Made by a program: the position numbers and the translations under genes. The notes beneath the pieces are model-generated. The model had not been told where the DNA came from. It searched no databases and worked only from the letters and a program-made list of their open reading frames with translations. This document shows positions 21,900 through 63,278 of a stretch of DNA of 64,000 nucleotides, piece by piece. How positions within the stretch are numbered: position 1 is the first letter of the stretch; each line of letters starts with the position of its first letter. The stretch lies in assembly GCA_964351225.1 (NCBI GenBank), contig CAYGNG010000011.1, positions 886 through 64,885 of the forward strand. The letters are read 5' to 3'. This stretch comes from an uncultured Gammaproteobacteria bacterium. Lineage in GTDB: Bacteria; Pseudomonadota; Gammaproteobacteria; CAYGNG01.

Positions 21900-22141
21900 A
21901 AATAGCCCCCTCTTGGCTGACAGCGCACAGGCTACCTGATAGCCAAAGCGACAGCAAGTTTTATAGAAACGTAGGGGTGAATTACCCCATCATGGCTAAT
22001 GGAATAATCTTGTCGAGCAAGCTATCCACCATATATAACGGGCAATTGAGTACGTCACCATCGCGTTGCAAATTAGCACCTGAAATCAAAATAGCGAACG
22101 CCGGGTTAAATTTCTCACGAAAAATTTTCTCGTCGTATCGT

Positions 22142-44414: not shown

Positions 44415-44579
44415 CGCGCCTATTTACAATTACTTTTTGGGGCTGCAAATGCCGCTCTCTTTGTCTCTCAGTCATCGTTTGATCTCGTCAAATAGGAGTC
44501 ACTATTCTCCTCGCTCAAACGATGATTGCGACAAATTATCGACATTTTCGCTCCGGAAAAGCAATTGTAAACAGACCCT
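44415..44579 (+). repeat. MITE-like element, full copy 1 (about 165 bp, about 27-bp TIRs)
   Basis: Near-identical to 49898-50059. The ends ...tatttacaattactttttgggg and gcaattgtaaacagaccct are imperfect inverted repeats of each other. Confidence 0.75.
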
Positions 44580-44711
44580 AATTAATCAAACAAAGTTTGG
44601 ATTTGGTGGTATAATATCTAGCACTTTATTACTGTTTTTTGTCATCGCATTTGTCTGGCTAAAAACAAATTTTTTACCAAGATAAAGACCTTGCACCAGC
44701 ATGTGGAGTAA

Positions 44712-47311: not shown

Positions 47312-48022
47312 TTAAGGCTTCATTCCTGACGCAGAATCGTTGGTTGTCGTGTAGAGATATTTCGTTGCCACTGCGGCGATAGCGACAAGGCCAGCAGCGG
47401 TAGCAAAGAACAAGGATTTGTTGGTGAAAGTTGGTGATACGGTGCTTTTCGCGACTTCCTGTTTTTCCTGGCTTTGTTGATTGAGATCAATTTTTAAGAG
47501 CGGATCGGCCCGTCCGGTTGGTTTATAGTCAATGCGCTTAACGCGAATCGTTTCCCCAACTAACCTTTCAGCCAGCTCGCGGGCTTGTTCGGTTTTACCA
47601 ACCGTAACATGTGCGATAGTTCTTTGAATCGGCGTGTTTTGTTCGTTGGTCGTGGCTTCGCCTTCTGGGTGCGCGAAATGGTATATAATGCCATTTTGTT
47701 CAGCGGTGGTGATGCCATCCAGCAGGCGGCTTAATTGGCTGCGACAATCTCCTTTTATTTCGAGCTCTAGACCAAATAAAGTGCCACCTGCAAGTTTTGC
47801 AACACCGCTGACGGTAAACTCGGCATTTTGCGAACAGATAATACGTTGCAAATCGGGTAATATTTTCTCAACCGCAGCGGTTTGATCCGTGTCAGTGCAC
47901 GCGAGAGTAAAGTGTGCATGATCTTTCACTGCAGCAATTTCCGCCCCGACTTTGGTTTCCGGATCCACTAAACAGCGCAGGGTGTGAGTCGGCGGCATCG
48001 GCATCGGTTCTTTAAACGACAT
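47312..48022 (-). CDS. 2H phosphoesterase (LigT / cyclic phosphodiesterase-like) with a C-terminal transmembrane anchor
   Basis: Two H-x-T-x motifs (HFTLAC and HVTVGK) about 105 aa apart. C-terminal hydrophobic helix LFFATAAGLVAIAAVATKYLY. The start at ATG 48022 (MSFKEPMP) is preferred over the upstream ORF-track start at 48202. Confidence 0.6.
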   Translation of the reverse strand: MSFKEPMPMPPTHTLRCLVDPETKVGAEIAAVKDHAHFTLACTDTDQTAAVEKILPDLQRIICSQNAEFTVSGVAKLAGGTLFGLELEIKGDCRSQLSRLLDGITTAEQNGIIYHFAHPEGEATTNEQNTPIQRTIAHVTVGKTEQARELAERLVGETIRVKRIDYKPTGRADPLLKIDLNQQSQEKQEVAKSTVSPTFTNKSLFFATAAGLVAIAAVATKYLYTTTNDSASGMKP

Positions 48023-48221
48023 ATGTTTTTTCCTTTTACAAAATTTACAAAAACGAAGTAACGCGGCGTATTCGTCGTGAATTTGTCCGCGCAATAGACA
48101 CTCAGGTTGTAAGCTCCGGGTTGAGCACGTGTGTGCCTTGAAAAGAGGAGTATATCTATTATGAACCAGGTTTGTTAGTATTTCTGTAATTATTTGCTTC
48201 ATTTTTATTACGGAGTGATGA

Positions 48222-48908
48222 ATGTCTCAATACGATTCGGATCCGCCAGAGACGCCTGATGAAGAAGTTAACGTTTGGTTGAATATCTGGAATGAGCCAA
48301 GCGCAGTCTTTGAAAAGTTAATGTATGAAATGAAGATAATGCCCATCTTTATTATTATCTTGTCCTATGGGTCGGCGTTGTACATCAATAAAATGTGCAA
48401 AGCCTTTTTTATTGAGATGAGTGGCGTGCCCGCTGCCGCGCTTAATGAAAGCGTGAATCAAATTGCCTTAGATGTTGCTCTAGCCAGCGCGGCTGGGTTT
48501 GGCGGTATGGTGGTGTTTACGTTGGTGGCTTCTGCGCTGGTAAAATTTATCTCTGGGCTGTTAGGGGGCGAGGCCTCCTATCAAAAAATCCATACAGTTG
48601 TCACCGTTTCTTATATTCCACAAATTTATTTGCTCTTATTTACGGCAATTTATTATTGTGTCGTTAGCGAGTTTACCAATGGCGCTGCCGTAGCGGCCGA
48701 TTTTTTATTACATCCGGAAAATATTTTTGGCCACTTTTTCCTATTAATGCTGTGGGTGGGGGTCGCTTTGTTTCGCTTTGTGGTGCTCTGCATCGGAATA
48801 ACGATTGCCAATGAGTTTAATAATAACCTATACGGCTTTATTACCATCGCGGGTGCGACCATGATTTCATGGATTGGTGTTTCTACGGTTGCGGTTTTGT
48901 TCCAATGA
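48222..48908 (+). CDS. Polytopic membrane protein, Yip1-like (paralog 1)
   Basis: Five hydrophobic helices. It shares the N-terminal motif W(L)NIW..P.AVFEK with the next gene. Confidence 0.55.
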   Translation: MSQYDSDPPETPDEEVNVWLNIWNEPSAVFEKLMYEMKIMPIFIIILSYGSALYINKMCKAFFIEMSGVPAAALNESVNQIALDVALASAAGFGGMVVFTLVASALVKFISGLLGGEASYQKIHTVVTVSYIPQIYLLLFTAIYYCVVSEFTNGAAVAADFLLHPENIFGHFFLLMLWVGVALFRFVVLCIGITIANEFNNNLYGFITIAGATMISWIGVSTVAVLFQ

Positions 48909-48963
48909 TACCAGGGGTGGTGGATTGCTTGTTTGCGAACAATAGATTAAGTTTTCCAAAGGG

Positions 48964-49740
48964 GTGCCGAAAAAAAGGAAATGGGGGAAGCAACCGGTAG
49001 CGGTTGTTTTAAAGCCAATGACGAGCAAGGAGGGGGATCCAATGGAGCCCGACAAATCGCAAACGGAAAAAAAATCTTGTTGTAATATGGTGTGCGCCAA
49101 AGAATGTAAGTGGCTGTCTATTTGGGTGAAGCCGCGCGCGGTATTTGAAAAAATAAATCAAGAAGGCAATTGGAAGCATTTTTGGAAAATCGCTTTGGTT
49201 TATTTGGTGGTGCTGTGTGTGTACACACTGTGTATGGCCCATTTCGGGAAAGCCGCGGATGGCGATCACGATAAATACCAAATGATGCTGGAGTCATTTT
49301 CTAGTATCGTTATGATAGCGATGGCCTTGCTCCTTTTCCTGGTAACCCTTGCGATGTGGACAATTAACGCAGCCTGTTTGATGATGACAGGGCGCTGGTT
49401 GGGTGGTCGTGCCAGCTATCTCAAAAATGCATTAGTGGTTGCGGTTAGCACCATCCCGTACGTCGAAATGATGTTGTTAGAAGCGCTGTTAGTAACACTT
49501 GCGACATGGCTTGGTGTTTCGGCCATTGTTGGGATGGTGAGTCTGTTTGCGTTTTTAGCAAACGTGTATGTGTTTGTTTTCACGATTGTTGCCATCTCCA
49601 AAGGGTTAGCCGTTATTAATGATTACCCCTCGGCTTGGCGCGGTTTCGGCAATTATTTGTTAGGGTTTGTTTTCTTTGCCTTGATTTTTATCGTGCTTGG
49701 CGTGATCAGCGCGATGATTATTCCTTCTTTTATTCACTAG
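48964..49740 (+). CDS. Polytopic membrane protein, Yip1-like (paralog 2). The start is uncertain.
   Basis: CKWLSIWVKPRAVFEKI is shared with paralog 1. Multiple transmembrane helices. Confidence 0.55.
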   Translation: MPKKRKWGKQPVAVVLKPMTSKEGDPMEPDKSQTEKKSCCNMVCAKECKWLSIWVKPRAVFEKINQEGNWKHFWKIALVYLVVLCVYTLCMAHFGKAADGDHDKYQMMLESFSSIVMIAMALLLFLVTLAMWTINAACLMMTGRWLGGRASYLKNALVVAVSTIPYVEMMLLEALLVTLATWLGVSAIVGMVSLFAFLANVYVFVFTIVAISKGLAVINDYPSAWRGFGNYLLGFVFFALIFIVLGVISAMIIPSFIH

Positions 49741-49897
49741 GGATTGGTTGACATTTGCAGCCGAAAAAGCAAGTGGCAACAGGCCCTCATCGTCTTGGAG
49801 TGGGTTTGCGTTTATAGCGCGAATCCACTTTCATTATGAGCCAGGCTTTGTTTTGAAAATAGACACACGGTGTTGCTTTTTTGTTATTGCGTTGTTA

Positions 49898-50059
49898 GGA
49901 TCTGTCTACAATTACTTTTTGGGGCTGCAAATGCCGCTCTCTTTGTCTCAATCATCGTTTGATCTCGTCAAATAGGAGTCACTATTCTCCTCGCGCAAAC
50001 GATGATTGCGACAACTTATCGACATTTTCGCTCCGAAAAAGCAATTGTAAACAGACCCT
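49898..50059 (+). repeat. MITE-like element, full copy 2
   Basis: aggatctgtctacaattactttttggggctgcaaatgccgctctctttgtc ... gcaattgtaaacagaccct. About 90% identical to copy 1. Confidence 0.75.
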
Positions 50060-50213
50060 ATCTTTCATCACACGTTTGCTAGTAAATTCTTACAGGAGAA
50101 AAAATGTTACCCAACGACGCGCCTAAAAATAATAGTGACTCAGCTGGTGTTGATGAAGACATTAAGCTGCTTAATCAGCCTACGATCGTTCGTTTGACAA
50201 TGACGACCATGAA

Positions 50214-50616
50214 GCCAATGACGGGTATGAAGCGCAACTGGTGCAAATGATTAACACGGAGCGCTTCCGTCGCGATCAGCTTACGGGTCATAATTTGAGA
50301 TTATTGCAACACATGGCTGCTATTAAAAAAATGCTGTCCTTAAGCGGTGGGCAGGAGATTACGTTTTGCACATGGGTTCGCTTACCTTTACATCACGGGG
50401 CAGGGGGCCAGAGGTTGCCGCCGGGCTGTTTGATAGAGTTTCAAGGGAGATGATGAAAAAACAACTTCTTCAAGCGAGCAATAATGATGAAGAAGCAAAA
50501 AGCGCTGCTTCTGCATCAGCAGATAGCGCTTCTTTTTCCTGATACTCCCCCACACGCTTGGGGCCCCACCCATCGTTCGTTGTGCGATGCGTGGGGCTAT
50601 ATAGATTAAGGCCTAG
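50214..50616 (+). repeat. Direct repeat A (403 bp) flanking the ATPase cassette. It carries a pair of small overlapping ORFs and a hairpin.
   Basis: Near-identical to 52503-52902, with a few substitutions and a 3-nt indel. Contains a 70-aa ORF, then an ATGA-overlapped ~30-aa acidic/Ser-rich ORF (MMKKQLLQASNNDEEAK...), then the stem ccccacccatcg / cgatgcgtgggg. Confidence 0.8.
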
Positions 50617-50865
50617 CACCCTGTTAAAAAGTTTTTGTGCCTTGATTAATTAGGAGAAAATGAGAGAATACTCACTTTTTGAATAAGTAAGTATCAATGA
50701 GCGGAAATGGAATTCAAATTCGGTTAACGAAAAAAGATTTATTGGTAATCAAAGAATATTTAAAGTACTAAGCGCCTCGGGTGATTAGAAGATGTAATAT
50801 TTTAAATGCACTTAATCTTGGGTATGGGGTTATTGAAGATATTGACCGTGATTTTTAATCCAGCA

Positions 50866-52308
50866 TCACCATCGGCTTTCTAAAAGTTCGGAAAAATCAA
50901 TTACCTTAAAAAAATAATTTTTGTCAAGAACAGCATCCTGTACACCGTTAACATGTATTAATACAGGAAGACAGGAAAAACCTCGGGGAAGACTTAAGTT
51001 AGATAATTTTTTTTTCATTTCATTAATGATATCAAGCTTTATCTCATTTCTACTGAACTTAATCTCACAGGCATATAAGGTTGCTGTTTTGGTTTGGACA
51101 AGATAATCAATTTGGCATCCTTTTGTTTTGGTTGTGGATCTTTGAAAAAAAGGACCATCTATTTCAACATCGTCATGATCGATATTTAAAATGCCATGAA
51201 TAATTTCTCTGTTAGATAGGACTAAATTTTCAAATTGCAAGCCTATAATACTAGACCAGCCTACGAGATTAGAAAGAGAGGAGACCTTATGCTTTCTGAT
51301 TTTTATTGTATTTATATGTGTTTTAATATATTTAAGATAAAATCTCATGTAATTATCAGATAATCTATAGCGACTTAACTTAGATGTTTTTTTATTTTTA
51401 ATATGCCATGTATAATCTCGAGTAATAAAACCGGCTGAAATTAAGTTATCAAGATACTCACTAAAGTCCCCGCCGGGCACTCTCTTTAGCTTTTCGGCAA
51501 TTTCTTGCCTTTCCATTGGTGAACGAATCAAGGCTACTACAATTTTCTTATAAATGTCTGCTTCAGATGAGATTGAATCATAAAATATTTGATCAAACTC
51601 ATTAAACAATATACCGCTTTCATGAAAACACATTTTATTGATATTATTATCAATACTGGTATTTTCTTGCCATTCTTCTAAATATCTTGGTATGCCCCCA
51701 CATATAGCTAAGAATTTAAATTTATCATATGAAGACAGTTGAGATGATCTTTCATTAAAGAATTGGTCACACCTATTTAATGGAAGCTCGTTTAAGGTAA
51801 TCTGTAAAGAAATTCGTCCGACAAACCCAGTATTGGATAATATATTTTTCTGTATCCAGATGGATACGGAACCACATAGTATCAGAATCAATTCGTTATT
51901 TTTTTTAAAACAAGTATCCCATACCGTTTTTAGTTTTCCTAGAAAATCTGGGTCTTTAGACCCCATCCATGATATTTCATCAAATAATATAATTGCCCTT
52001 CCTTTTTTTGTTCTTTCCGCAAGAAACCATAGCATATCCCACCAATCATTGCTTTCAATGTTGGTTTTTTTGAAATGTTTAGTTAGTTGTTTCAGGAAGG
52101 CGTTCCTTTCTGACATGTCAGAGGTTTTTTCATGGGGCGGAATCCCTGAAAAACTATAGAAGGAATGCTTTTTAGCGAATTCTTCCACTAGACGACTTTT
52201 CCCTATTCGCCGCCGTCCTTTTATAACAACCAAGCTCGCAGATTTTTTGGCAAGCAAACTATTCAATATTTTTAATTCATATTCACGGCCTATAAAATCT
52301 GGCATCAC
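50866..52308 (-). CDS. AAA+ ATPase of the archaeal-ATPase / DUF4143 (DUF234)-like family, in a low-GC insert
   Basis: Walker A GRRRIGKS, Walker B ILFDEISW, 480 aa. The local sequence looks markedly more AT-rich (roughly 30-35% GC) than the flanks. Confidence 0.8.
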   Translation of the reverse strand: MMPDFIGREYELKILNSLLAKKSASLVVIKGRRRIGKSRLVEEFAKKHSFYSFSGIPPHEKTSDMSERNAFLKQLTKHFKKTNIESNDWWDMLWFLAERTKKGRAIILFDEISWMGSKDPDFLGKLKTVWDTCFKKNNELILILCGSVSIWIQKNILSNTGFVGRISLQITLNELPLNRCDQFFNERSSQLSSYDKFKFLAICGGIPRYLEEWQENTSIDNNINKMCFHESGILFNEFDQIFYDSISSEADIYKKIVVALIRSPMERQEIAEKLKRVPGGDFSEYLDNLISAGFITRDYTWHIKNKKTSKLSRYRLSDNYMRFYLKYIKTHINTIKIRKHKVSSLSNLVGWSSIIGLQFENLVLSNREIIHGILNIDHDDVEIDGPFFQRSTTKTKGCQIDYLVQTKTATLYACEIKFSRNEIKLDIINEMKKKLSNLSLPRGFSCLPVLIHVNGVQDAVLDKNYFFKVIDFSELLESRW

Positions 52309-52502
52309 ATAATCCTCATAAGTCCCCGATAACAGAACAATATCTTTTTGCGGGGGCTTATGTCAAGTGTCGTGTCTTTGCTGTAGGGGCTGTGCGATAT
52401 AAAAGTAAGTAGCGTAACGCTCTGCTTTTTCATCATGCATTTTTTCTTTTTAGCAATGGTAACTACTCGGGCCCTTTGGGCGCTAAGGCATTGCCAGCAA
52501 GT

Positions 52503-52902
52503 GCCAATGACGGGTATGAAGCGCAACTGGTGCAAATGATTAACACGGGGCGCTTCCGTCGCGATCAGCTTACGGGTCATAATTTGAGATTATTGCAACA
52601 CATGGCTGCTATTAAAAAAATGCTGTCCTTAAGCGGTGGGCAGGAGATTACGTTTTGCACATGGGTTCGCTTACCTTTACATCACGGGGCAGGGGGCCAG
52701 AGGTTGCCGCCGGGCTGTTTGATAGAGTTTCAAGGGAGATGATGAAAAAACAACTTCTTCAAGCGAGCAATAATGATGAAGAAGCAAAAAGCGCTGCTTC
52801 TGCATCAGCGGATAGCGCTTCTTTTTCCTGATACTCCCCCACACGCTAGCCCCACCCATCGTTCGTTGTGCGATGCGTGGGGCTATATAGATTAAGGCCT
52901 AG
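52503..52902 (+). repeat. Direct repeat B (400 bp)
   Basis: See repeat A. It carries an 88-aa version of the first small ORF (52476-52742). The stop codon of the convergent 512-aa gene (cta 52899-52901) lies in its last bases. Confidence 0.8.
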
Positions 52903-54437
52903 TTTTTGGAACAGGAAGGGGCTGATGTTTTTTCTTCTGCTGCGGGCTTGGGCTCTGGTGCGACAACAACAGGCGGGTTATACGCCAGTTGCAAACACTG
53001 CGGTGGTTGCGGTAGTGCGAGTTGTCGATGGCGCTGTGCGCTCTCAGATTGAATATTGGCGGCAGCGGAGTTTGAGGCGGTATTAGCACCGAGAAGCGAT
53101 GAAAAAAACGATGACCACGATGGGCGAGCCGCTTGCTGTTGCGCCGCACTTTCAGTTGCCGATGAACCATAAAGCAATCGCTCCATTTGGTCGGCGGTAA
53201 ATTCGACTTTTTGAGGCAGTAACGATATCGTTATGTTGGGCATTGGGGCCGGCAAATGCAGCGTTTTCTTTCCCCCGTCGATATCAGAGAGACAAGTGAG
53301 ATATACGCAGTCCAAACCGCTGCCTTGTTTTTCGTGCGCCTCATAAGCGGTTAGCGCTTCTTTATGAAACTCATTGGAGCATATATCGCCGAATAAACCA
53401 TCTTGGGCAAAAGGATTTTGCGGCGAGTTCAGATAGACCAGCAGAGGAAGTATCATTTGAAGCTTCGAATCTTGTTCAGCGGTTAAATCAATGCTTTCTT
53501 CGCGCTCGGTTGTTTGGCGACGGATCCCTACTTTGTTTGCAAGATAGTCTTCTATTTTCTTATAGAGCAGCGCGCTGAGATGCCTCTGATGCCAAACCGT
53601 AGCGGCATCGTCCTCGCCCTTTTGGGGGGCGTAAGGGTAACCGGAAAAAGGGGGGAGGTATCGCTCTAAAAAAGCAAGCAGGTCGTTGCGAAAATCACCT
53701 TCCTCAAAATGATTGATGATGTCGACAACGCGATAGACAAAGCTGGGGTAGAGATCAAATTCTTCATATTCAGCGGGCATGGTTTTTTGATTTTCACCGA
53801 TCAACGCATTCAGTTGGCTTAAGAGATTGTTGTAGAGAATGAATAGGGGTGTATCGGGGATGGCTGCTTGTTGCCGTTGTTGGAAAAAATCGCGCCGTAG
53901 GTGAGCAATCTCAACCATGATATCGTGCTTGACGAGATAGGCTCGGCCTTGGTCTTGTGAGCCCGCTATTCTCGTGAAATATTCTTGGACTTCCCAGGTT
54001 TGTATGCTACGAGTCGCGCATTCAAAGATTGCCACGGGGTTAATTGTTGAAAGCATAACCGGAATATGCCCGGTTTTAAGAAGTTTTTCGGTCATTTCAT
54101 TGACGTCGGAATATGAATGGCCGCAACTAAAAGAGCGATTCATTTTTTCTACTGCAAGAGAGAATTTTTTTAGCCGGTCTGATATCTTGCGGGTATCGAG
54201 ATGCGTAGAAAAATCGGCGCATGTTTTCTCGGCAGTCGCGCTAAAAGCATTGATTTTGGGCATGAGGTCGCTTATCGGCATGCCAAAGGTTTCTCGGTTG
54301 CCGGCTTTGCTACCGGAAAAATAAGTAAAAGCGTCGCTTCGGGTGTGTATAAAACCGATTTCTTCAGGTGCATATACGGTGGTGGAAATGGCGTGCTTGG
54401 TTTCTTCGGCGTCTGAGTGCTGGTTTGTGTGCCACAT
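52899..54437 (-). CDS. Hypothetical protein (512 aa), candidate effector
   Basis: Long ORF with no recognisable motif and a C-terminal low-complexity Ala/Pro/Ser region. Confidence 0.5.
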   Translation of the reverse strand: MWHTNQHSDAEETKHAISTTVYAPEEIGFIHTRSDAFTYFSGSKAGNRETFGMPISDLMPKINAFSATAEKTCADFSTHLDTRKISDRLKKFSLAVEKMNRSFSCGHSYSDVNEMTEKLLKTGHIPVMLSTINPVAIFECATRSIQTWEVQEYFTRIAGSQDQGRAYLVKHDIMVEIAHLRRDFFQQRQQAAIPDTPLFILYNNLLSQLNALIGENQKTMPAEYEEFDLYPSFVYRVVDIINHFEEGDFRNDLLAFLERYLPPFSGYPYAPQKGEDDAATVWHQRHLSALLYKKIEDYLANKVGIRRQTTEREESIDLTAEQDSKLQMILPLLVYLNSPQNPFAQDGLFGDICSNEFHKEALTAYEAHEKQGSGLDCVYLTCLSDIDGGKKTLHLPAPMPNITISLLPQKVEFTADQMERLLYGSSATESAAQQQAARPSWSSFFSSLLGANTASNSAAANIQSESAQRHRQLALPQPPQCLQLAYNPPVVVAPEPKPAAEEKTSAPSCSKN

Positions 54438-54485
54438 GGGTTTTTCCTCGTTTAATATTGTAATTGTCGGTACGGGTTATTTTTT

Positions 54486-55502
54486 TCAAGATGGCCGCGT
54501 TATCTTTGCCCTAGGGCCACGACCATCATTGGCGGAGGTTGATGATGGTGCCGGCCTTGTGAAAATTGTGCTGCCGTTATTAAAATAGTAGCTCGCGGCT
54601 CCACTATCAGAGAGCACTGTTTTCGCTAGACTTATTTCGGCCCATTGCTTTTTGCTGTTTTCCGATTGGCTTTTATCTGGGTGGCATGTTACCGCTATTT
54701 TTCGAAAAACGCTTTCAACCCGACGGGGTGTTAATGCTGGGCTAGGCTGTAAGCCTAACGCGGCGAATAAATCAAGTTGTTGCGTAATGGCTTGACCTGC
54801 CAGTCGCATCGGCTCGGAGGCGGTGGCTGGCTGAGGGTCTTTGCCGGGAGGCCGTTTCAGTCGTGGCTTGCGGGCTTGACCCGTTGTGTTATTGTCACGC
54901 GCCAGGTTGTCTTGGGTTGTATGCTCTGTCGGGTTATACCAGGGTAAATGGCGATATAGGTCAAAAATTTTATCGCAAAGCCTATCAACAGCCCAAGAAA
55001 AAGGACTGACACAGAGGTTGCTTATCCGAATAAAAACGTAAGCGACCATATAGGGGATCGCGCCCAAGAGAAAACCAAAGATGGTCTCCAGCTCCTTTGG
55101 CGGAATGCCGAAAGTGGCCACGAAAGGAAGAAAAACAATTGGCGGAAGAAGCAAGCTATTTTTTTTGTACTTCCCCCTTTTCCCGTGTAATAAAACGGCT
55201 ATGGGCTTATCAATAAAATTGTGCCCGACAGCAGAAGGAATATTGAAGAGCACTTGTAGAATGAAGCCGATTGCCATGCCAACAAGCAGTGGCGGCGCAC
55301 CGCAGATAAGACCCAAAGGCCCGTTGAAATGGTTTTCTTTCGGTTTATGTATTTTGCCATCTAGCCCTACTAACAGGGTATCTAAAACATGAGCAACACC
55401 TGCCGGGATAAAACTAAATAATCGGCCGAAAGGGTATCGTAATCCTGATTTACTTGCTTCATCGAGAAAATATATGGAGTAATCTTTATAGCTTTTGCTC
55501 AC
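54486..55502 (-). CDS. Membrane protein with a C-terminal J-domain (DnaJ-like, HPD motif)
   Basis: VFRKIAVTCHPDKSQSENSKKQWAEISLAKTVL is a J-domain helix II-HPD-helix III pattern. N-terminal hydrophobic helices (LICGAPPLLVGMAIGFILQVLF, IVFLPFVATFGIPP). Confidence 0.6.
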   Translation of the reverse strand: MSKSYKDYSIYFLDEASKSGLRYPFGRLFSFIPAGVAHVLDTLLVGLDGKIHKPKENHFNGPLGLICGAPPLLVGMAIGFILQVLFNIPSAVGHNFIDKPIAVLLHGKRGKYKKNSLLLPPIVFLPFVATFGIPPKELETIFGFLLGAIPYMVAYVFIRISNLCVSPFSWAVDRLCDKIFDLYRHLPWYNPTEHTTQDNLARDNNTTGQARKPRLKRPPGKDPQPATASEPMRLAGQAITQQLDLFAALGLQPSPALTPRRVESVFRKIAVTCHPDKSQSENSKKQWAEISLAKTVLSDSGAASYYFNNGSTIFTRPAPSSTSANDGRGPRAKITRPS

Positions 55503-55630
55503 AATTAGACCCTCTGCCGTTTTTATGGCTTAGCCTATCACATGCGCTGGAAGGAAATACAGTTTTGCAGAGAAGGACGGTTAAAAAAAGAACCAATCAG
55601 ATTGAAGGTTGATCACCTATCGCCGCTGCG

Positions 55631-57631
55631 TTAGAGCATATCCACCGGATCGACATCGACTGACCAGCGGACTTGCCGAGTTAGTCGGTTATCTTCTATG
55701 GCATTGAGGATGGCTTTGACGGCTTGATGCAGCGCTTTGCGATTTACGGATTGCAATAAGAGTTGCGCGCGGAAGCGGCCTGCGCGTTTTTCCATGGGCG
55801 CCGGGACGGGACCAAGAATGAAAACAGCAGCCGGCTTTTTGACGTGCGCACGGACTTGTTGCAAGAATTGTAAACTGATCCCACGTTTGGTGGCTTCAGC
55901 ACGAAATAAAACGTGAAAACTAAAAGGAGGTAGTGTTGTGCTCTGTCTTTCGGCTAATCCCATGGCAATAAATTGCTGATAATCATTTTGTAAAACCAAT
56001 TGCATGAGTGGATGATCTGGGTGATACGTCTGGATGAAGACATGGCCAGGCTTCTCAGCGCGACCGGCGCGGCCAGCTACTTGCATAATCATTTGTGCGG
56101 TGCGTTCACAAGCGCGGTAGTCGACACTAAACAAACCCTGATCGGCATTGAGGACCCCAACCAGGGTCACGTTAGGGAAATGGTGCCCTTTCGCGAGCAT
56201 TTGCGTGCCAATTAAGATTTGTTTCTCACCGTGTTGAATGGCATGCAGTATTTGTTGCAACGCGCCTTTGCGCTGTGTGGTATCGCGATCAAGGCGCGCA
56301 AGCGCGTGATTGGGGAATAATTGGGTGATGGTTGCTTCGATGCGTTCGGTACCATCTCCGAGCTCAATCAGGGTTGAAAGTTTGCAGTTTTCACAAATCG
56401 TGGGGACGCGATGCGAGGCGGTGCAATGATGGCAACGCAAGACGTGCGGATTTTTATGCAGCGTTAAGCGCGCATCGCAGTGTTGACAATGCGCCATCCA
56501 GCCACATTCTGGGCACAGCAAGGTGGGGGCAAACCCTCGCCGATTGATAAACAACATGACTTGCTCTTGACGGTCAAGGTGTTCTTTCATCATGGCGATT
56601 AAGGTGGGCGTTAAGCCATTTTCCATGACGATATGACGGCAATCTAATAAATGGAATGTTGGGGTTGTTGCCGCTCCGGCGCGGTTGGGCAGTTTGAGGG
56701 CGGTATATTTTTGTGAAATCGCGTGATAAGTGCTCTCAAAAGAAGGCGTTGCCGAGCCTAACACGATGGGTATCTTTAACCTGCTGGCACGCAGGATCGC
56801 AAGATCACGAGCACAATAGCGCAACCCTTCTTGCTGTTTGAAAGAGGGATCGTGTTCTTCATCAACGATGATGAGTGCTAAATTCGGCATGGGGGTAAAA
56901 ATAGCAGAACGCGTTCCGATAACAATGCGGGCGTGATGAATTTTGGCTTGCCACCAAGCGCGCATCCGCTCGGTGTCATTAAGGCCAGAGTGTATGAGCG
57001 CGATGGGTGTTGAGAAACGATCCGTGAAGCGCGCTACCATTTGTGGTGTGAGGGAAATCTCAGGGACTAACACCAAGATTTGCTTATTTTGTTCGGAGAG
57101 GAGTGCTGCAATCAATGCGAGATAGACTTCGGTTTTGCCGCTGCCGGTGATCCCGTCTAGCAGGAAAGCGTGGTAGGTATGGCGGTATTCTAAGATGGTT
57201 GCGACGGCTTGTCGTTGCGCTTCATTTAAGACATGAGGTGGCGAGAGGGCGCTTGTGGGAGCGTGGGGTGGTTTTAATTTGGCTTGGTTTAGCGCTTTTC
57301 CTTGCCGTAAAGCCGTCGGGATGGCGTTTAGCAGTGTTTCACCGAGCGGATGATGATAGTAGCCACTGGCCCATTGGCATAACGCCATCAATTCGGCATC
57401 GATAAGGGGCTCATCATCCAAAATGGATATCGCCTGTTTGATTTTGTTTTTAGGGCAACTGCTGCCAGCGCTGATGCCGATAATAATGCCGGTGATGGGT
57501 TTATTGCGGAAAGGCACTTGCACCCTAAGCCCGACTTTAACTTTTTCTGCTGGGAAATCATCTGGCGGGAGATAATCAAAGTGTTGGTATAATGGGGCAT
57601 TGACGACGACTTGTAAGTAGAAAATTTGCAT
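55631..57631 (-). CDS. priA: Primosomal protein N' (replication restart helicase)
   Basis: Walker A GITGSGKTEVY, DEEH box, Cys-rich zinc-finger insertion CPECGWMAHCQHC...CHHC...CENC. 666 aa. Confidence 0.9.
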   Translation of the reverse strand: MQIFYLQVVVNAPLYQHFDYLPPDDFPAEKVKVGLRVQVPFRNKPITGIIIGISAGSSCPKNKIKQAISILDDEPLIDAELMALCQWASGYYHHPLGETLLNAIPTALRQGKALNQAKLKPPHAPTSALSPPHVLNEAQRQAVATILEYRHTYHAFLLDGITGSGKTEVYLALIAALLSEQNKQILVLVPEISLTPQMVARFTDRFSTPIALIHSGLNDTERMRAWWQAKIHHARIVIGTRSAIFTPMPNLALIIVDEEHDPSFKQQEGLRYCARDLAILRASRLKIPIVLGSATPSFESTYHAISQKYTALKLPNRAGAATTPTFHLLDCRHIVMENGLTPTLIAMMKEHLDRQEQVMLFINRRGFAPTLLCPECGWMAHCQHCDARLTLHKNPHVLRCHHCTASHRVPTICENCKLSTLIELGDGTERIEATITQLFPNHALARLDRDTTQRKGALQQILHAIQHGEKQILIGTQMLAKGHHFPNVTLVGVLNADQGLFSVDYRACERTAQMIMQVAGRAGRAEKPGHVFIQTYHPDHPLMQLVLQNDYQQFIAMGLAERQSTTLPPFSFHVLFRAEATKRGISLQFLQQVRAHVKKPAAVFILGPVPAPMEKRAGRFRAQLLLQSVNRKALHQAVKAILNAIEDNRLTRQVRWSVDVDPVDML

Positions 57632-57743
57632 GGTAAGGATTGATTCATGGCACAGTTTGGCAACAAGACGTAATTATTCAGGAAAAACCCCCGGGGTGCC
57701 AGTTTTTTTGCACAAGCCGTAGCACGACACCCCCAAAGCCGGT

Positions 57744-58184
57744 TTATTCAACACGAATATCAATTTGTTTGCCACGCGCCGGGTTAACTTTAGGAATAAC
57801 AATTTCCAACACACCATTTAAATGTTTTGCTGAAATGCCTTCAATGTCTGCGGTGTCTGGCAGGGTGAATTGGCTTTCGAATTTACCATAAACTTTCTCG
57901 GCTCGAGTAAATTTTTTGGTTTTTTCTTCGCTTTCGCTTTTCCGCTCACCGCCAATAGAAAGCACATGATCGTGCATCGCAATTTTGATGTCTTCTTTTG
58001 CGATACCAGGCAAATCAGCCGAAATAACAAAGCGGTTTTCTTCCTCATGGACATCGACAGAGGGGATCCAATTGGCGGTAGCCACAGCCGACGTGTCATC
58101 GCTAAAGCGAGCCGGCCTATTGGGGTAAAAGGCTTTGTTTAATTCATCTAATAAACGCCAAGGTTCGTATCGTGTTAAACTCAT
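57744..58184 (-). CDS. Small heat-shock protein (Hsp20 / alpha-crystallin family)
   Basis: 146 aa. The alpha-crystallin domain pattern (VDVHEEENRFVISADLPGI...GVLEIVIPK) resembles IbpA. Confidence 0.85.
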   Translation of the reverse strand: MSLTRYEPWRLLDELNKAFYPNRPARFSDDTSAVATANWIPSVDVHEEENRFVISADLPGIAKEDIKIAMHDHVLSIGGERKSESEEKTKKFTRAEKVYGKFESQFTLPDTADIEGISAKHLNGVLEIVIPKVNPARGKQIDIRVE

Positions 58185-58286
58185 CGTGCAGTCCTCCTAA
58201 TTGATTGTTACCATTAACATGGTGGTTGCGGTCTGAATTTCAAGGCGCGCAACAGGTTGAATTAATTCTATCGTTGGAGGTGGCGT

Positions 58287-58946
58287 GTGGGGCAACAAAC
58301 AATGAAACAAAATGTGGCCAAGGCGGCTTTGGCGCATTTGGTCGAAGATGAAGTTATCGGTATAGGCACTGGCTCGACCGTGAATTGCTTCATTGAGTTA
58401 TTATCCGCGTATCGCAATAAGATCGAAGGGGCCGTCACCACCTCCCACGTCAGCGCTGAGAAGTTAAAAGCGGCGGGTATTCGCATCGTGGATCTAAATT
58501 CCGTCGTGCAGGTGCCGGTTTATTTCGATGGCGCAGATGAAGTAAATCCCCATAAACAAATGATTAAAGGTGGGGGCGGGGCACTCACGCAAGAAAAAAT
58601 TGTCGCGAGCGCTTCTAAAAAATTTATTTGCATGATTGATGAATCCAAGCAAGTAACCGTGCTATCTGAAAAACACCCGGTACCGATAGAAGTCATCCCT
58701 TGTGCCCGAAGTTTCGTTGCCAGAGCGATCCGTCAGCTTGGCGGTGATCCGGAGTATCGCGAGAGTTTTGTCACCGATAATGGCAATGTCATTTTAGATA
58801 TTTATCACTTTGAGATCCAAGAACCCATTAAAATGGAAGAATTACTGAACCAAATCCCGGGCGTGGTGAGCAATGGCATATTTGCGAAAAGACCGGCGGA
58901 TGTGGTGCTGGTCGCCAGTAAAAATGGGGTGGTTACGACACAGTAA
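58287..58946 (+). CDS. rpiA: Ribose-5-phosphate isomerase A
   Basis: GIGTGST motif, DGADEV, KGGGGALTQEK. 219 aa. Confidence 0.9.
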   Translation: MGQQTMKQNVAKAALAHLVEDEVIGIGTGSTVNCFIELLSAYRNKIEGAVTTSHVSAEKLKAAGIRIVDLNSVVQVPVYFDGADEVNPHKQMIKGGGGALTQEKIVASASKKFICMIDESKQVTVLSEKHPVPIEVIPCARSFVARAIRQLGGDPEYRESFVTDNGNVILDIYHFEIQEPIKMEELLNQIPGVVSNGIFAKRPADVVLVASKNGVVTTQ

Positions 58947-59005
58947 CGACACAAAGTGTTACAAACCGTTACCGGCATGAAATCATTGCGAAACCGCCGC
59001 CCTTT

Positions 59006-60661
59006 ATGATTCTTGTTGTCACAAGCACAAAGGAGCGAACAGCGATGTTATCAAGCCAAATTCTTTCCGATGAAGAATATCAACCGAATCCACTGTTTCA
59101 GCCGGTAAAAGGCACGGAAAAACTTAAAGCAACACAGCAGCGTGCGGCACCAGGCAGGGACAATAGCGCGATGAACTTGGTTCCTGATGCATATTATATT
59201 CAGCCAAATGCTAACGATGAAGCAGACATTGCGCGTCTGGTAAATCCACCACCCAATCAACAAGGGTTTGTTTATAAGGCCTTAGGATGGTTAGCGACTT
59301 TATTCGTGGCGGCGACCGGAGTAGGGTTAATCTATTTGTTGTTTAAAGTTACTTTCATTCCGCAAGGAAAATTAGGCTATGTCACTTACAATGGCAGCCC
59401 CAGAATTTTGGAGCCGGGTTGGCATTGGCTCAGGCACCCTTTCTCGTTGTTACAAAGTGAAATTAATTTAAATGAGATGTCTTTTCGGCAGATACCGCTG
59501 ACGCTGGTGACGATTGATCAAGGTGAGTATGGTTTGGTAATGGATAATGGCCACCCTAAAATATTATTGCCAGGGCGTCATTTGAGCTTGTCCCCAACCT
59601 TTCAATGGAAGGATAGCTGTCGCGTGGATATGGAATCCGCCTATCAAAGTTCCGGTATTGCCAGGCTTGGGCCCATTAAATTTATTTATGTGCGACCGAG
59701 TGCGGTTCGCCCCGTTTACAATGGGACTGAACTGTTAATTTTGCCACCTGGTTATCACAGCTTTGATAAAGTGACGCACCGGGTATTGCCGGAAATCTCA
59801 ATGGCGGAAACCGTCATGCCGTTTGAGCAAGTTGAAGTGTCAACCAATGAACCGACGCCGTTGAAAGCGCAAGTTTTAATACGTTACAAGGTGACCGATC
59901 CGGAAAAGCTGGTTAAAAACATGGGCCCTGAAAACCTTCAGCAAGCATTGAATAATGAAACCCATGCCGTGACGCGAGATGTGATTTCACGATATAGTTT
60001 ACAAGAAATTTTTGTTAACAGCCTGGGTAAAGCGAGAGAAGGCCATGAAGCGAAAGAAGCAGATGAAATGAATGCTTCAGCATCGGTTAGTAGTATTTTC
60101 ACCGATAAAAAACAGCATACGGGCGTTTATGATGTCATTGCCAAAGAGATCACGGATATTGTTAAACCAACAGCGGCGCAGTGGGGGGTCGAGGTAGAGA
60201 GTGTGGTCTTAGAATCGTTGATCATCTCCGATCCAAAGTTAAAACAAAGTTTGGAGCAAGCCACACTCGTTCCCGCGCAAGAAAATCAAAAATTAAGAGC
60301 ACAGCGGGCCGTTAATGAGCGATTACTTTCGGAAGCACACAATAACGTGTTGCTACAGCAAGAGGAAAATAAACGGATCATCTCAAAAGCAGAAGCAGAA
60401 GCCCAAGCGGCACAAATGCTCTCCGAGCAACCGCTGGCACAGCAACAAGCCTTATTGAAATCCTTGGCCGAAGTTGTTAGCCAATTCCGCTTGGAGGGGA
60501 CGTTGGTAACCGATAGCGGTGCTCTTCCGTTGGCGAAATTAATGCAGCTATTTAAATCACCAGCACTCGTTGAAGCGCGTGGCGCGGTGAGAGAAGTAAA
60601 GGCCGAGCAAGAAGCGCCAGCCGCTGCTACCAGCGCGCGCTCTAATCACGGCTCTAGCTGA
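59006..60661 (+). CDS. SPFH/band-7 (flotillin-like) membrane protein with a C-terminal coiled coil
   Basis: One N-terminal transmembrane helix (GWLATLFVAATGVGLIYLLF). A central region of band-7 type. A C-terminal charged heptad-like segment (QENQKLRAQRAVNERLLSEAHNN...AEAEAQAAQ). This assignment is an inference. Confidence 0.5.
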   Translation: MILVVTSTKERTAMLSSQILSDEEYQPNPLFQPVKGTEKLKATQQRAAPGRDNSAMNLVPDAYYIQPNANDEADIARLVNPPPNQQGFVYKALGWLATLFVAATGVGLIYLLFKVTFIPQGKLGYVTYNGSPRILEPGWHWLRHPFSLLQSEINLNEMSFRQIPLTLVTIDQGEYGLVMDNGHPKILLPGRHLSLSPTFQWKDSCRVDMESAYQSSGIARLGPIKFIYVRPSAVRPVYNGTELLILPPGYHSFDKVTHRVLPEISMAETVMPFEQVEVSTNEPTPLKAQVLIRYKVTDPEKLVKNMGPENLQQALNNETHAVTRDVISRYSLQEIFVNSLGKAREGHEAKEADEMNASASVSSIFTDKKQHTGVYDVIAKEITDIVKPTAAQWGVEVESVVLESLIISDPKLKQSLEQATLVPAQENQKLRAQRAVNERLLSEAHNNVLLQQEENKRIISKAEAEAQAAQMLSEQPLAQQQALLKSLAEVVSQFRLEGTLVTDSGALPLAKLMQLFKSPALVEARGAVREVKAEQEAPAAATSARSNHGSS

Positions 60662-60692
60662 AGAAGAACCGGCGGCGGGTAATGATATGAAA

Positions 60693-61133
60693 TTATCCGC
60701 CGGGTGGTTTTGGTGAAAGAGAGGATTGTTGTGCTGGTGGAAGGAGCGCAGTCGATAGTGAGTTGGCATGCTTTTCGAGTATTTCGATTTCTCGGGTTGA
60801 CAAAGACCTCAATTCGGCGGAGGTTTTGTTGGCAATGGTTTTGGCGGCAATCTGTTTAATTTCGGTTGCGGTTGCCTGAGCGGTGCCGTTGAATGAGTCA
60901 ATGGTGTGTTGTGTCAGAATTTCGATTTTAAGCTGTTTTAAAAGTGTTGTATCCTCCCTGATGGTATTTATCAGGTGTTTCCAAGCTATCGCTGGGCCCG
61001 ATTCCTTGAGGTTTGCAAAGAATTGCTCGAGCGGCGATTGATGAGCGTGGTTATTGAAAAATCCGTTTGTTCTGTCTTTAAAAAAGCGCATGGCACAATC
61101 CTGTTTAATATTCGCATATATTAACTCTAGCAA
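60693..61133 (-). CDS. Hypothetical protein (146 aa)
   Basis: Only a plausible ORF. No motifs. Confidence 0.3.
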   Translation of the reverse strand: MLELIYANIKQDCAMRFFKDRTNGFFNNHAHQSPLEQFFANLKESGPAIAWKHLINTIREDTTLLKQLKIEILTQHTIDSFNGTAQATATEIKQIAAKTIANKTSAELRSLSTREIEILEKHANSLSTALLPPAQQSSLSPKPPGG

Positions 61134-61278
61134 CCAAACCTTAACACTTCCTTAATAAATCGCGAATGAAATTTCATTAATAACCAATAGCGTAACATAA
61201 AATTTTAGAAAATCAGAGAGCTGGATAGGCAGGATTTTACCCATGACCATGGGTAGTATAATGGCTTTCTAGTGCATA

Positions 61279-61319
61279 CCATCTGGCAAAGCGGCCACTT
61301 TGCCAGATGGTTTGGTGTT
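61279..61319. terminator. Perfect 13-bp stem / 6-nt loop hairpin followed by TTTGGTGTT
   Basis: ccatctggcaaag cggcca ctttgccagatgg tttggtgtt. It sits directly at the stop of the minus-strand 360-aa gene. The U-tract is on the plus strand. Confidence 0.5.
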
Positions 61320-62400
61320 ATCCGTGGCCAGAGTTACCACCCAAGGTGACCGTGGCATACGAATACGATGCAGGAAGGGGTGGCTTTTTTTGCTCTGATA
61401 TGGCGCCAGACAAGAAGCCAATTGTCGGATATCGGAGGCTATCCGCGTTTACTGCCGGCGGTGATTTCTTTCTGATAGCAATCAATTGCGTATTGAGCGC
61501 GTTTTGAATGGCCTTAAATGAAGCGTCATCGGCATGGGATAAATATCCGCGCTTATTATTAATGAATGCTTGGATCTCGTTCCATACTGCTCGTGTTTCG
61601 GTGCGCGCAATAAATTTTAAAATGGCCGGAACAATAATCCGTGAGCGGTAGCTAGCAAAATGTTCCCACGCCGGATCGGCTTTGGAGGTATGTTTGGTTG
61701 CAATTAAGTTACCAATTTGTTCGACAGTTAGTGCGTTTAAAAACTTATCGGTTTTCAATAGTTGGAAATGCGGCTCGGACAATTGGTTTTTTGCCACGAT
61801 GGCTAAAATTCTGAGGATATTTAATTCTTCTTTTGTCATCAATGCGGTTAATTCGGTGACCGATTCCGAGCAATAGTCTTCTTGCTTTTGTTCAGGCTGC
61901 GGATTGCAAACTGAAATCGTCTTTTCGATTAAAGCGGTTTCGATTAAGTGATAAGAATGGCTGCAGGTGGTTCCTGCGCTATCCCTCCAGGTGGATGCGC
62001 CAGAATAACTCCGTAAATAATCATCATGGAAATGAACCAAGCGAGCGACGCGGTCACAGCCTGCTTCACCAGTGACTCGTGTTATTACGTTTAAAATGGC
62101 CTCCCGGATCATTTCTCGATAAGCTGTGAAATGAGTCCAGCTGCTATCGGTTCGGTCTTTTTTTGCTTGGATTAAGTCCGCGATATTCTCCGCGGATAAA
62201 GTAGCCAGAAAAGCCGGTGTTTTGAGGAGTGTTATATGTGCGGCACTGATTTGATTTTCTTGGATGACAGCCAGTGCGCTAGCGAAATTGATTTCTGTTT
62301 GAGTATGTTTTTGCAATTGTACGAAATCGTTAGATTTTTCTTGTGTTCCCGATAAGAAAGAAAACATAAGCACCTCCAAATTGTTATTGTGAAATTTCAT
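61318..62400 (-). CDS. Hypothetical protein with an internal tandem duplication, candidate effector
   Basis: Two about 55-aa repeats: ITLLKTPAFLATLSAENIADLIQAKKDRTDSSWTHFTAYREMIREAILNVITRVT and FQLLKTDKFLNALTVEQIGNLIATKHTSKADPAWEHFASYRSRIIVPAILKFIARTE. Confidence 0.5.
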   Translation of the reverse strand: MKFHNNNLEVLMFSFLSGTQEKSNDFVQLQKHTQTEINFASALAVIQENQISAAHITLLKTPAFLATLSAENIADLIQAKKDRTDSSWTHFTAYREMIREAILNVITRVTGEAGCDRVARLVHFHDDYLRSYSGASTWRDSAGTTCSHSYHLIETALIEKTISVCNPQPEQKQEDYCSESVTELTALMTKEELNILRILAIVAKNQLSEPHFQLLKTDKFLNALTVEQIGNLIATKHTSKADPAWEHFASYRSRIIVPAILKFIARTETRAVWNEIQAFINNKRGYLSHADDASFKAIQNALNTQLIAIRKKSPPAVNADSLRYPTIGFLSGAISEQKKPPLPASYSYATVTLGGNSGHG

Positions 62401-62541
62401 TGAACAGACACAACCGATTGTAGCAACCGCGATTTAAAAAAGATATGATGTTGTAAATAAAAGAAAAAACAGATGCATTTTACTGTGTCTCGAGGGCGGC
62501 TTACGCAATTTTTTTTGAAAACAACGCAAGGAAAATCATTC

Positions 62542-63171
62542 ATGCACCGTCATCGCGTGGGATTTTTATTGTTTGATCAATTTGAAGATCTCGATTTTTT
62601 TGGGCCGTGGGAAATTTTTGCAATTTGGCGCGATCATTTCAATGGCCCCAACGAATTGCTATTGCTTAGTGAGGGCGGTGGTTGGGTAACGAGCGCCAAA
62701 GGATTAACGCTACAAGTTACGAGTGATTTGTCATCGTGTCCCGCATTAGATTATTTATTAATCCCCGGCGGCCTTGGTACCCGCAAAGCCGTGGAGAACC
62801 CCTCTATCCTGCAATTTATTCAAGCGCAAGCGCTGCGATGCCGACATATTTTATCGGTGTGTACCGGAGCGTTTCTGTTACAAGCCGCGGGTTTATTAGC
62901 GAATAGACAAGCAACCACACATTGGGAGTCTGTGGCGCGCTTAGCGCATTTTCCGGAAGTGACGGTGACCGCGACACGCTATACGCGTGATGATAACCTC
63001 TGGACCGCTGCCGGCGTTTCCGCGGGGATTGATATGGCGCTGGCTTTTGTCGCCGCCGTAGCGGGCGAACAAACGGCTGGCGATATTCAACTCTACGCCG
63101 AATATTATCCCGCCCCAACCATCTACCCAAATCGGCAAAATATTTTACCAAAATACGTAGTCGAAAAATAA
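62542..63171 (+). CDS. DJ-1/PfpI (ThiJ) family protein
   Basis: Nucleophile-elbow cysteine in ILSVCTGAFLLQAAG. I trimmed the start to the ATG at 62542 (MHRHRVGFLLFDQFEDLD). Confidence 0.8.
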   Translation: MHRHRVGFLLFDQFEDLDFFGPWEIFAIWRDHFNGPNELLLLSEGGGWVTSAKGLTLQVTSDLSSCPALDYLLIPGGLGTRKAVENPSILQFIQAQALRCRHILSVCTGAFLLQAAGLLANRQATTHWESVARLAHFPEVTVTATRYTRDDNLWTAAGVSAGIDMALAFVAAVAGEQTAGDIQLYAEYYPAPTIYPNRQNILPKYVVEK

Positions 63172-63278
63172 GGGGCGAGAGGGTCTCGTGGCAAGCCGAG
63201 AAAGCCAGATTGAAATGCCATCGGCTTTTGATGCGGGTTAAAATCATGCGGAATGCTAAGGGCTCAATCAAAGCGCAT

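Follow-up and report, generated by a model that had tools for sequence, protein, structure and literature searches.

In the present study, a window of 64,000 nucleotides from a metagenome-derived contig of an uncultured gammaproteobacterium (CAYGNG010000011.1) (64,885 bp in length) was analysed around a solitary ATPase-nuclease gene, which lies in an AT-rich insert between two nearly identical direct repeats of about 400 bp (R_A on the left and R_B on the right; R when either copy is meant). We found that the repeats are a duplicated piece of the host's own DNA, and that the gene between them is of foreign origin. The best explanation for this arrangement is the single-crossover (Campbell-type) integration of a circle made up of the insert and one copy of R, and we judge the chance that this is right to be about even.

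Results

The two repeats were compared exactly in direct orientation and are 98.5% identical, which agrees with the original prediction, made from the sequence of this DNA, of direct repeats with more than 98% identity. Four differences separate the copies: 50260A/52549G, 50521A/52810G, a 3-nt deletion in R_B (50559-61) and 50562G/52848A. The insert (50617-52502, 1,886 bp) has a GC content of 0.338, against 0.494 for R and 0.458 for the whole window, so that it is indeed more AT-rich than its surroundings, as had been noticed. One substantial open reading frame (ORF) only, the intact ATPase gene on the minus strand, is found in it, and no inverted repeats were found at its ends. The positions of all features are collected in Table 1.

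The boundaries of the repeats tell where R comes from. R_A begins 37 nt before the stop of ORF0, the first of three small ORFs, and ORF0 reads across this boundary; hence, the left flank and R_A form one native unit. On the other side, the stop codon of a native 512-aa gene (52899-52901) lies inside R_B, as was foreseen in the original prediction, and R_B and the 512-aa gene likewise form one native unit. Since the two native outer junctions fall on different copies, the arrangement is topologically that of a duplicated target with an insert between the two copies. R is host DNA and not part of a mobile element; it comprises the 3' portion of an operon of three tiny ORFs, then a hairpin, and finally the stop of the 512-aa gene. 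The earlier suggestion that a small module had been duplicated is borne out to this extent, the repeats being a duplication of a small local module.

A different origin of the two copies would be that R is a dispersed or mobile repeat unrelated to the ATPase, and that the gene landed between two copies of it. The genome does have dispersed small elements, such as the miniature inverted-repeat transposable element (MITE)-like element 153 nt away, and the copy count covers 64 kb of the genome only. Within these 64 kb, R is present in two copies with no other similar sequence, and is thus not a common dispersed repeat there; the 35-nt core of its hairpin gave two matches where none was expected by chance. 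Furthermore, R has no inverted termini, each of its outer boundaries cuts a reading frame that extends into a unique flank (that of ORF0 on the left side and that of the 512-aa gene on the right side), the ORF1 protein is found once among 5.8 billion clusters, and a contig of the Logan assembly described below passes R unbroken. We therefore give this explanation hardly any probability.

The composition of the ATPase gene sets it apart from the rest of the window. Its GC content is 0.328 and its GC at third codon positions (GC3) is 0.280, against 0.467±0.025 and 0.472±0.030 in the 30 other long ORFs, which places it about 5.6 and 6.4 standard deviations, respectively, under their mean. The closest copies, in 'Gammaproteobacteria bacterium OFTM122' (loci L001/L010) and at loci L019 and L021, have 92-96% DNA identity and sit in unrelated contexts in metagenome-assembled genomes (MAGs) with about 38-40% GC; the gene has a lower GC content than its flanks in these closest relatives, too. 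Their homology to the window has its 5' limit at 52458 and its 3' limit at 50836. L001 and L019 share 197 nt more upstream and then diverge, so their contexts differ. At L003 and L004 the copies are about 80% identical and lie between unrelated housekeeping genes, and the shared part is the coding sequence with about 65 nt upstream, in which the promoter described below is contained.

No bracketing direct repeats were found at the seven other homolog loci where both sides could be examined, which indicates that the repeats belong to the insertion event in the window and not to the gene family. The gene thus moves as a promoter plus ORF with ragged, unconserved ends, and the low-GC segment at 50617-50835 is presumably a flank carried over from the donor. 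The 44-nt GC-rich segment next to R_B has no second copy in the window and resembles the upstream region of L001 by about 54%, as estimated by eye. Composition, together with near-identical copies in different contexts of other genomes, supports the reading of the insert as a recently acquired foreign cassette. Of the corresponding earlier claim, the foreign origin stands; the notion of a dedicated mobile cassette does not, as the repeats are of host type and the insert is without defined ends. A plasmid or phage was also considered as carrier and was rejected, because only distant relatives were matched (no more than 43.5% identity for those on plasmids, and 28% for one from a phage record, Wolbachia WO) and no vector was identified. 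As a separate observation, the NCBI and Logan assemblies of the OFTM122-like genome (L001/L002) both break in the 3' part of the ATPase gene (codon about 430-434), which suggests several diverged gene copies, or strain variation, in that sample.

The arrangement was also examined in a second assembly, the Logan assembly of run ERR3534985, which very probably derives from the same reads as the deposited contig. Its contig L009 corresponds to window positions 50587-52902 at 100% identity, with identical first and last 30 nt; it is a 2,286-bp cycle in the assembly graph, consisting of the insert and R_B, and carries all three B-type variants. Another contig, L005, corresponds to 52873-63975 and stops within the repeat, at exactly 30 nt (k-1) from its right end. 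Hence, host-type R is truly joined to the foreign DNA on both sides, and the duplication cannot be ascribed to an artefact of one assembler. The tandem integrated arrangement and a circle accompanied by an empty site yield the same Logan graph. The junction of the left flank with R_A is seen in the deposited contig only, and look-ups of ORF1, the Yip1-domain protein and ORF0 gave no recorded genes for the left flank in the Logan assembly.

These data bear on the possibility of an assembly or population artefact, in which an empty chromosome would be accompanied by a separate circular or tandem unit of insert plus R, or two strains would be present, and the cycle would have been threaded once into the deposited contig. 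Such an artefact would explain the closed 2,286-bp cycle, the stop of L005 at the repeat boundary and the confinement of the left junction to the deposited contig. It would also fit L009, which runs unbroken through the left boundary of R_B with all three B-type variants and could reflect a higher copy number of the unit. The unbroken contig could equally come from graph simplification, if the 153-nt left flank was pruned beside the multicopy MITE-like element, which probably breaks short-read assemblies near R_A. In addition, a 2.3-kb circle that lacks a replication gene can be maintained only through continual excision from an integrated copy. The two novel junctions (R end to insert and insert to R start) both occur within one contiguous contig at 100% identity, and the deposited assembly resolved two distinct repeat alleles. 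We consider an artefact quite unlikely on these grounds.

The ATPase gene encodes 480 aa from a GTG codon; the ATG at 52305 (479 aa) has a better Shine-Dalgarno spacing and is the start of the NCBI-sourced protein P0125. Pfam ATPase_2 (PF01637) matched residues 5-212 with 57.3 bits against a cut-off of 33.2, and weaker matches were obtained to AAA_14 (31 bits), AAA_22 and AAA_16. The PADLOC profile PDLC04984 (PDC-S27) matched residues 2-437 over profile positions 1-433 of 474 (E 1.3e-88). The family label given in the original prediction is hence supported for the archaeal ATPase and not supported for 'DUF4143-like', as no hidden Markov model (HMM) match to DUF4143 (PF13635) was obtained at E <= 10. 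More than 7,600 homologs were scored, and conservation was read from an alignment of 58 sequences, namely the window protein and 57 close homologs. In this set the Walker A residues G31, G36, K37 and S38 and the Walker B residues D110 and E111 are invariant, in line with the single 480-aa Walker A/B ATPase proposed before, and the motif D401...E415-x-K417 is invariant or nearly so. The window protein and the 57 homologs share the architecture of a STAND/ORC-like ATPase, a winged helix and a PD-(D/E)xK nuclease, and the ATPase and nuclease motifs are conserved throughout the PDC-S27 members compared.

No Pfam match was obtained for the C-terminal domain, and for the whole protein a sequence search against solved structures and a search of NCBIfam gave nothing. 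Structure models were obtained with predicted local distance difference test (pLDDT) values of 89-90 (AlphaFold model, 89). About 350 N-terminal residues superpose on STAND/ORC-type ATPases (Foldseek E 1e-10), with template modelling (TM) scores, normalised to the target, of 0.63-0.65 for PAB2304 (2qen) and SSO1545 (2fna); further structural matches of the AlphaFold model were 6mfv, plant NLRs, Apaf-1 and Cdc6/ORC. The C-terminal domain is modelled as a PD-(D/E)xK fold, and PDC-S27 has been described as an ATPase fused to a PD-(D/E)xK domain (PMC12988326). By its profile match, motifs and nuclease domain, the gene can be assigned to the very large ATPase_2 / PDC-S27 family. The predicted fold and the conserved residues suggest that the protein may work as an NTP-dependent, oligomerising DNA nuclease.

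A promoter overlapping an imperfect palindrome precedes the gene, and both are conserved in the four closest loci that were compared. The palindrome has the form GTCCCCG-N23-CGGGGAC, extended to CATAAG...CTTATG in the window. In other genomes it lies at about 5085-5150 in L001, 9940-10000 in L003, 1745-1800 in L004 and 3363-3412 in L019; L001 and L019 have a second, degenerate copy of the palindrome about 300 nt further upstream. The palindrome may be a putative operator for the protein's own winged-helix domain, and the protein may accordingly be autoregulated at its promoter.

Table 1. Features of the repeat-bracketed insertion and its surroundings (window positions)
Feature	Position	Strand	Remarks
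MITE-like element, 165 nt	49896-50060		Terminal inverted repeats of ~41 nt; 153 nt left of R_A; context only
ORF0, 48 aa	50104-50250	+	AGGAG Shine-Dalgarno; last 37 nt in R_A; stop overlaps ORF1 ATG at 50247 (ATGA)
Direct repeat copy A (R_A)	50214-50616	+	403 nt; GC 0.49; host sequence
ORF1, 68 aa from ATG (70 aa from GTG at 50241)	50247-50453	+	Orphan
ORF2, 30-aa acidic peptide	50450-50542	+	Start overlaps ORF1 stop (ATGA)
Imperfect palindrome (hairpin) in R_A	50563-50597		Stem of 7+6 bp with one mismatch
Low-GC segment 3' of ATPase gene	50617-50835	-	219 nt; GC 0.315; not common to closest homolog loci
ATPase gene, 479/480 aa	50866-52308	-	STAND/ORC-like AAA+ ATPase, winged helix, C-terminal PD-(D/E)xK nuclease domain; PADLOC PDC-S27 family
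Sigma-70-type promoter TTGACA / TATTGT overlapping imperfect palindrome (CATAAGcCCCCG...CGGGGaCTTATG)	52316-52366	-	Kept in homolog loci of other genomes
GC-rich 'filler' between homology end and R_B, 44 nt	52459-52502		GC 0.57
Direct repeat copy B (R_B)	52503-52902	+	400 nt; without start and promoter side of ORF0; includes stop codon of 512-aa gene
Hairpin copy in R_B	52849-52883		Same palindrome as in R_A
Native orphan 512-aa gene	52899-54437	-	Convergent with small-ORF operon; stop in R_B

The original prediction named two translationally coupled small ORFs with an ATGA overlap in each repeat. The coupling is present, and copy A in fact has three such ORFs behind a strong AGGAG, both junctions being ATGA overlaps. 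The ORF2 peptide is acidic and rich in Ala and Ser. None of ORF0, ORF1 and ORF2 matched a known family, and ORF0 is also without homologs. For ORF1, a search of 5.8 billion clusters and a HMMER search of 1.84 billion representatives returned the self match (P0121) only; two weak extra matches were translations of repeat sequences and are spurious, and the protein occurs a single time, on one contig. The codon-usage likelihood of the small ORFs falls within the lowest 5-7% of real-gene windows, and that of the antisense frame is not much lower. The small ORFs could be a real micro-operon or chance ORFs, and an addiction module, as was once speculated, finds no support in these orphans.

A hairpin follows the small ORFs as had been noticed, with a stem of 7+6 bp and one mismatch (Table 1). 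The folded segment of 74-77 nt that contains it has an energy of about -26 to -28 kcal/mol, and the palindrome has no occurrence in the window outside R_A and R_B. A canonical intrinsic terminator was considered and rejected, as there is no T-tract on either strand. R as an RNA feature was likewise rejected, the Rfam matches being only sub-threshold small nucleolar RNA (snoRNA) noise.

Several further observations concern the surroundings. The sole homolog of the 512-aa gene product (P0123) is 34% identical and has a different context. The regions 47312-49740 and 52899-55502 hold lineage-specific genes, which encode two tandem Yip1-domain membrane proteins, a 296-aa orphan, a DnaJ-domain protein of 338 aa and the 512-aa orphan. 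A pair of a DnaJ-domain protein and a 512-aa-like protein is kept at 34% identity in the gammaproteobacterial MAG GCA_031291175.1 (L006/L007), and is followed there by a further 510-aa ORF. These lineage-specific neighbours look like effector-type genes of an intracellular bacterium. A second full copy of the MITE-like element, with 94% identity, is located a short way upstream of gyrB (44416-44580), and a left-end fragment is present at 22141 to about 22215; its terminal inverted repeat reads TAGGrTCTGTyTACAATTACTTTTTGGGGCTGCAAATGCCG ... reverse complement. Moreover, an 18-21-nt motif, (A/G)CCAATGACGnnnATGAAG, is present at 50194-50231, 49012-49032 and 52501-52521, and stands in tandem exactly at the left boundary of R_A. 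One frame of this motif encodes NDDHEA-NDGYEA, and it also occurs inside the upstream Yip1-domain gene; it may be a source of microhomology at the duplication boundary.

Discussion

Foreign DNA within a direct duplication of one host segment, with both outer junctions continuous with the native flanks, is the outcome expected of a Campbell-type integration, and this is what was found here. A circular molecule, consisting of the foreign segment and a 400-bp host segment, would have recombined with the chromosomal R by a RecA-type single crossover. The site of insertion is the convergent 3' region between the native three-ORF operon and the native 512-aa gene, in a host that is probably Legionellales/Coxiellaceae-like. 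After integration, both neighbouring units would keep their 3' ends, that is, ORF0 to ORF2 and a hairpin on the left, and a stop and a hairpin for the 512-aa gene on the right. If the R copy of the circle came from a slightly diverged sister strain, the four differences between R_A and R_B would be expected. The event would also be reversible, as the repeats could recombine with each other, releasing a circle of 2,286-2,289 bp and returning the site to its empty state. Two direct copies of a 400-bp sequence at a distance of 2.3 kb should not be stable in a cell proficient for RecA; this would mean that the insertion is recent, or that the gene is under selection, or both.

Other routes were weighed against the single crossover, among which end-joining is the main rival; an artefact, site-specific recombination in trans and a dispersed repeat are smaller ones. 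In a one-step duplicative insertion by end-joining, breaks about 400 bp apart would capture foreign DNA with filler, and the target would be duplicated in the process; the breaks might lie on two sister chromatids or be one staggered break, and no circular intermediate with host homology would be needed. This route suits a foreign segment without defined ends, in which a donor flank (50617-50835) is present and a 44-nt stretch (52459-52502) stands at one junction in the manner of typical filler DNA. An 18-nt motif in imperfect tandem, CAATGACGnnnATGAAG, is found at the left boundary, and end-joining accounts for the first joining event, which the Campbell model does not. It demands two breaks and a capture, which are rare in bacteria, and all four differences between the copies must postdate the event, although gene conversion is likely. 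Obvious microhomology is also absent from the right-hand junctions. We hold this rival to be unlikely.

The involvement of a dedicated enzyme is harder to sustain. A transposon is not indicated by an insert whose ORF is an ATPase, which has no inverted repeats, whose duplication is 400 bp long and whose ends vary among the homolog loci. Integrase-mediated islands typically have direct repeats at their ends by which the 3' end of the target gene is rebuilt, and the present repeats have a like architecture; a strong imperfect palindrome stands at the end of R, and the stop codon of the 512-aa gene is restored by R. The repeats could on this basis contain attL and attR, left by an island that has decayed or is mobilised in trans (like a cis-mobilisable element, CIME), with the palindrome as recombinase site and the integrase elsewhere. 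Apart from the gene 3' end as target, the features of such islands were not found. There is no integrase or recombinase among the proteins scanned at about 43-61 kb, nor in the Pfam table of the Logan contig covering 52.9-64 kb, and no tRNA or transfer-messenger RNA (tmRNA) was found within 40-64 kb. The 400-bp identity is far above the length of att cores, the seven other loci of the gene are without flanking repeats and their ends are not conserved, and the palindrome is found nowhere else in the window. Thus, with no transposase, inverted repeats, integrase, tRNA target or conserved ends, transposition is excluded and integrase-mediated insertion is very unlikely.

Several points weigh against the single-crossover integration that we prefer. 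The Campbell route needs a prior molecule in which foreign DNA and R were already joined, and leaves this first illegitimate joining unexplained; the 44-nt GC-rich segment at 52459-52502 fits end-joining filler at least as well. Neither the circle nor the empty site was physically observed, and the second assembly confirms the junctions and not the linear order. No close relative was found in which an empty site could be seen (none through ORF1, one through the 512-aa gene at 34% identity, five loci in the metagenome scan), and the host genome is not among the GTDB species representatives. In the literature, no paper specific to a natural Campbell-type integrant of such a kind was found, and the run accession gave no match.

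A bolder extension of the single-crossover model, in which we place little confidence, is a recombinase-free, homology-armed minicircle. A foreign gene with 400 bp of host sequence would here form a unit of 2.3 kb that passes in and out of the chromosome by means of host RecA and the captured piece of the target locus alone. A candidate defence gene could in this manner be shuttled between co-resident strains of an intracellular or amoeba-associated gammaproteobacterium, and the B-type unit would seem more continuous in the raw-read graph on account of real excised or amplified copies. It is more speculative still that the nuclease-ATPase promotes its own insertion or excision.

Regarding function, a role in defence is weakly supported, by the match to the candidate family PDC-S27, and the ATPase-nuclease could be a defence or abortive-infection effector. 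PDCs, which are often solitary, have the status of untested candidates, 'guilt by embedding' being the ground on which they were proposed (bioRxiv 10.1101/2024.01.29.577857). Association with known defence systems, which is the basis of such a proposal, was not found here. At the five close-homolog loci (L001/L002, L003, L004, L011 and L012), the neighbouring genes mostly have housekeeping or transport functions; the others encode a Fic protein, an RCC1-repeat protein and an AAA_14+DUF4143 ATPase. No defence islands were found at these loci or at the window locus, and the window neighbours gave no real match to PADLOC, apart from one marginal histidine kinase match (E 8e-4). When candidates were tested in E. 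coli B against T4, T5 and T7, four of them gave protection, and the PDC-S27 representative was not one of these (bioRxiv 10.1101/2024.09.26.614923). This non-protection and the lack of defence neighbours speak against the functional side of our reading. Of the speculation on defence or abortive infection in the original prediction, then, the family match is what remains, and the proposed look at defence neighbourhoods came out negative. On a side note, a Coxiellaceae MAG has a true AAA_14 + DUF4143 ATPase (L012:3268-4422) at a distance of about 1.6 kb from its PDC-S27 homolog, with the RCC1-repeat protein between the two ATPases, so that two solitary ATPase families stand side by side.

If the single-crossover reading is true, the locus would show, as a clean natural case, a solitary candidate defence gene that has entered a genome with no dedicated mobility enzyme, both neighbouring genes being left intact and the insertion reversible. 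It would then bear on how single-gene 'defence candidates' are spread in intracellular bacteria that have few mobile elements. The locus is one case only, on a metagenome-derived contig, which represents no new class of system and belongs to known kinds, and can be compared with four of them.

With the Avs and other STAND NTPases, and with the archaeal PAB2304 and SSO1545, the window protein has in common the superposable N-terminal 350 residues and the likeness of an oligomerising NTPase combined with a nuclease. It differs from Avs in its size of 480 aa, in a nuclease that is C-terminal instead of N-terminal, and in having no C-terminal repeat or sensor domain and no membership at the sequence level. 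With PDC-S27, the full-length HMM match, Walker A/B, the PD-(D/E)xK C-terminus and the solitary gene are the same; the window copy differs in being bracketed by repeats, unlike the seven other loci, and no defence system adjoins it. With Campbell integration, the locus shares the foreign DNA in a direct host duplication, the continuous outer junctions and the 2,286-bp cycle of insert plus repeat. That process is known mainly as a laboratory or plasmid phenomenon; no vector, replicon or source of a circle is seen here. Finally, IS26-type translocatable units and pseudo-compound transposons have the same order of direct repeat, cargo and direct repeat, and cargo with one repeat could move as a circle. 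The repeat in the window is, in contrast, a plain 400-bp host sequence with no transposase and no terminal inverted repeats, and any movement of the unit would depend on homologous recombination of the host.

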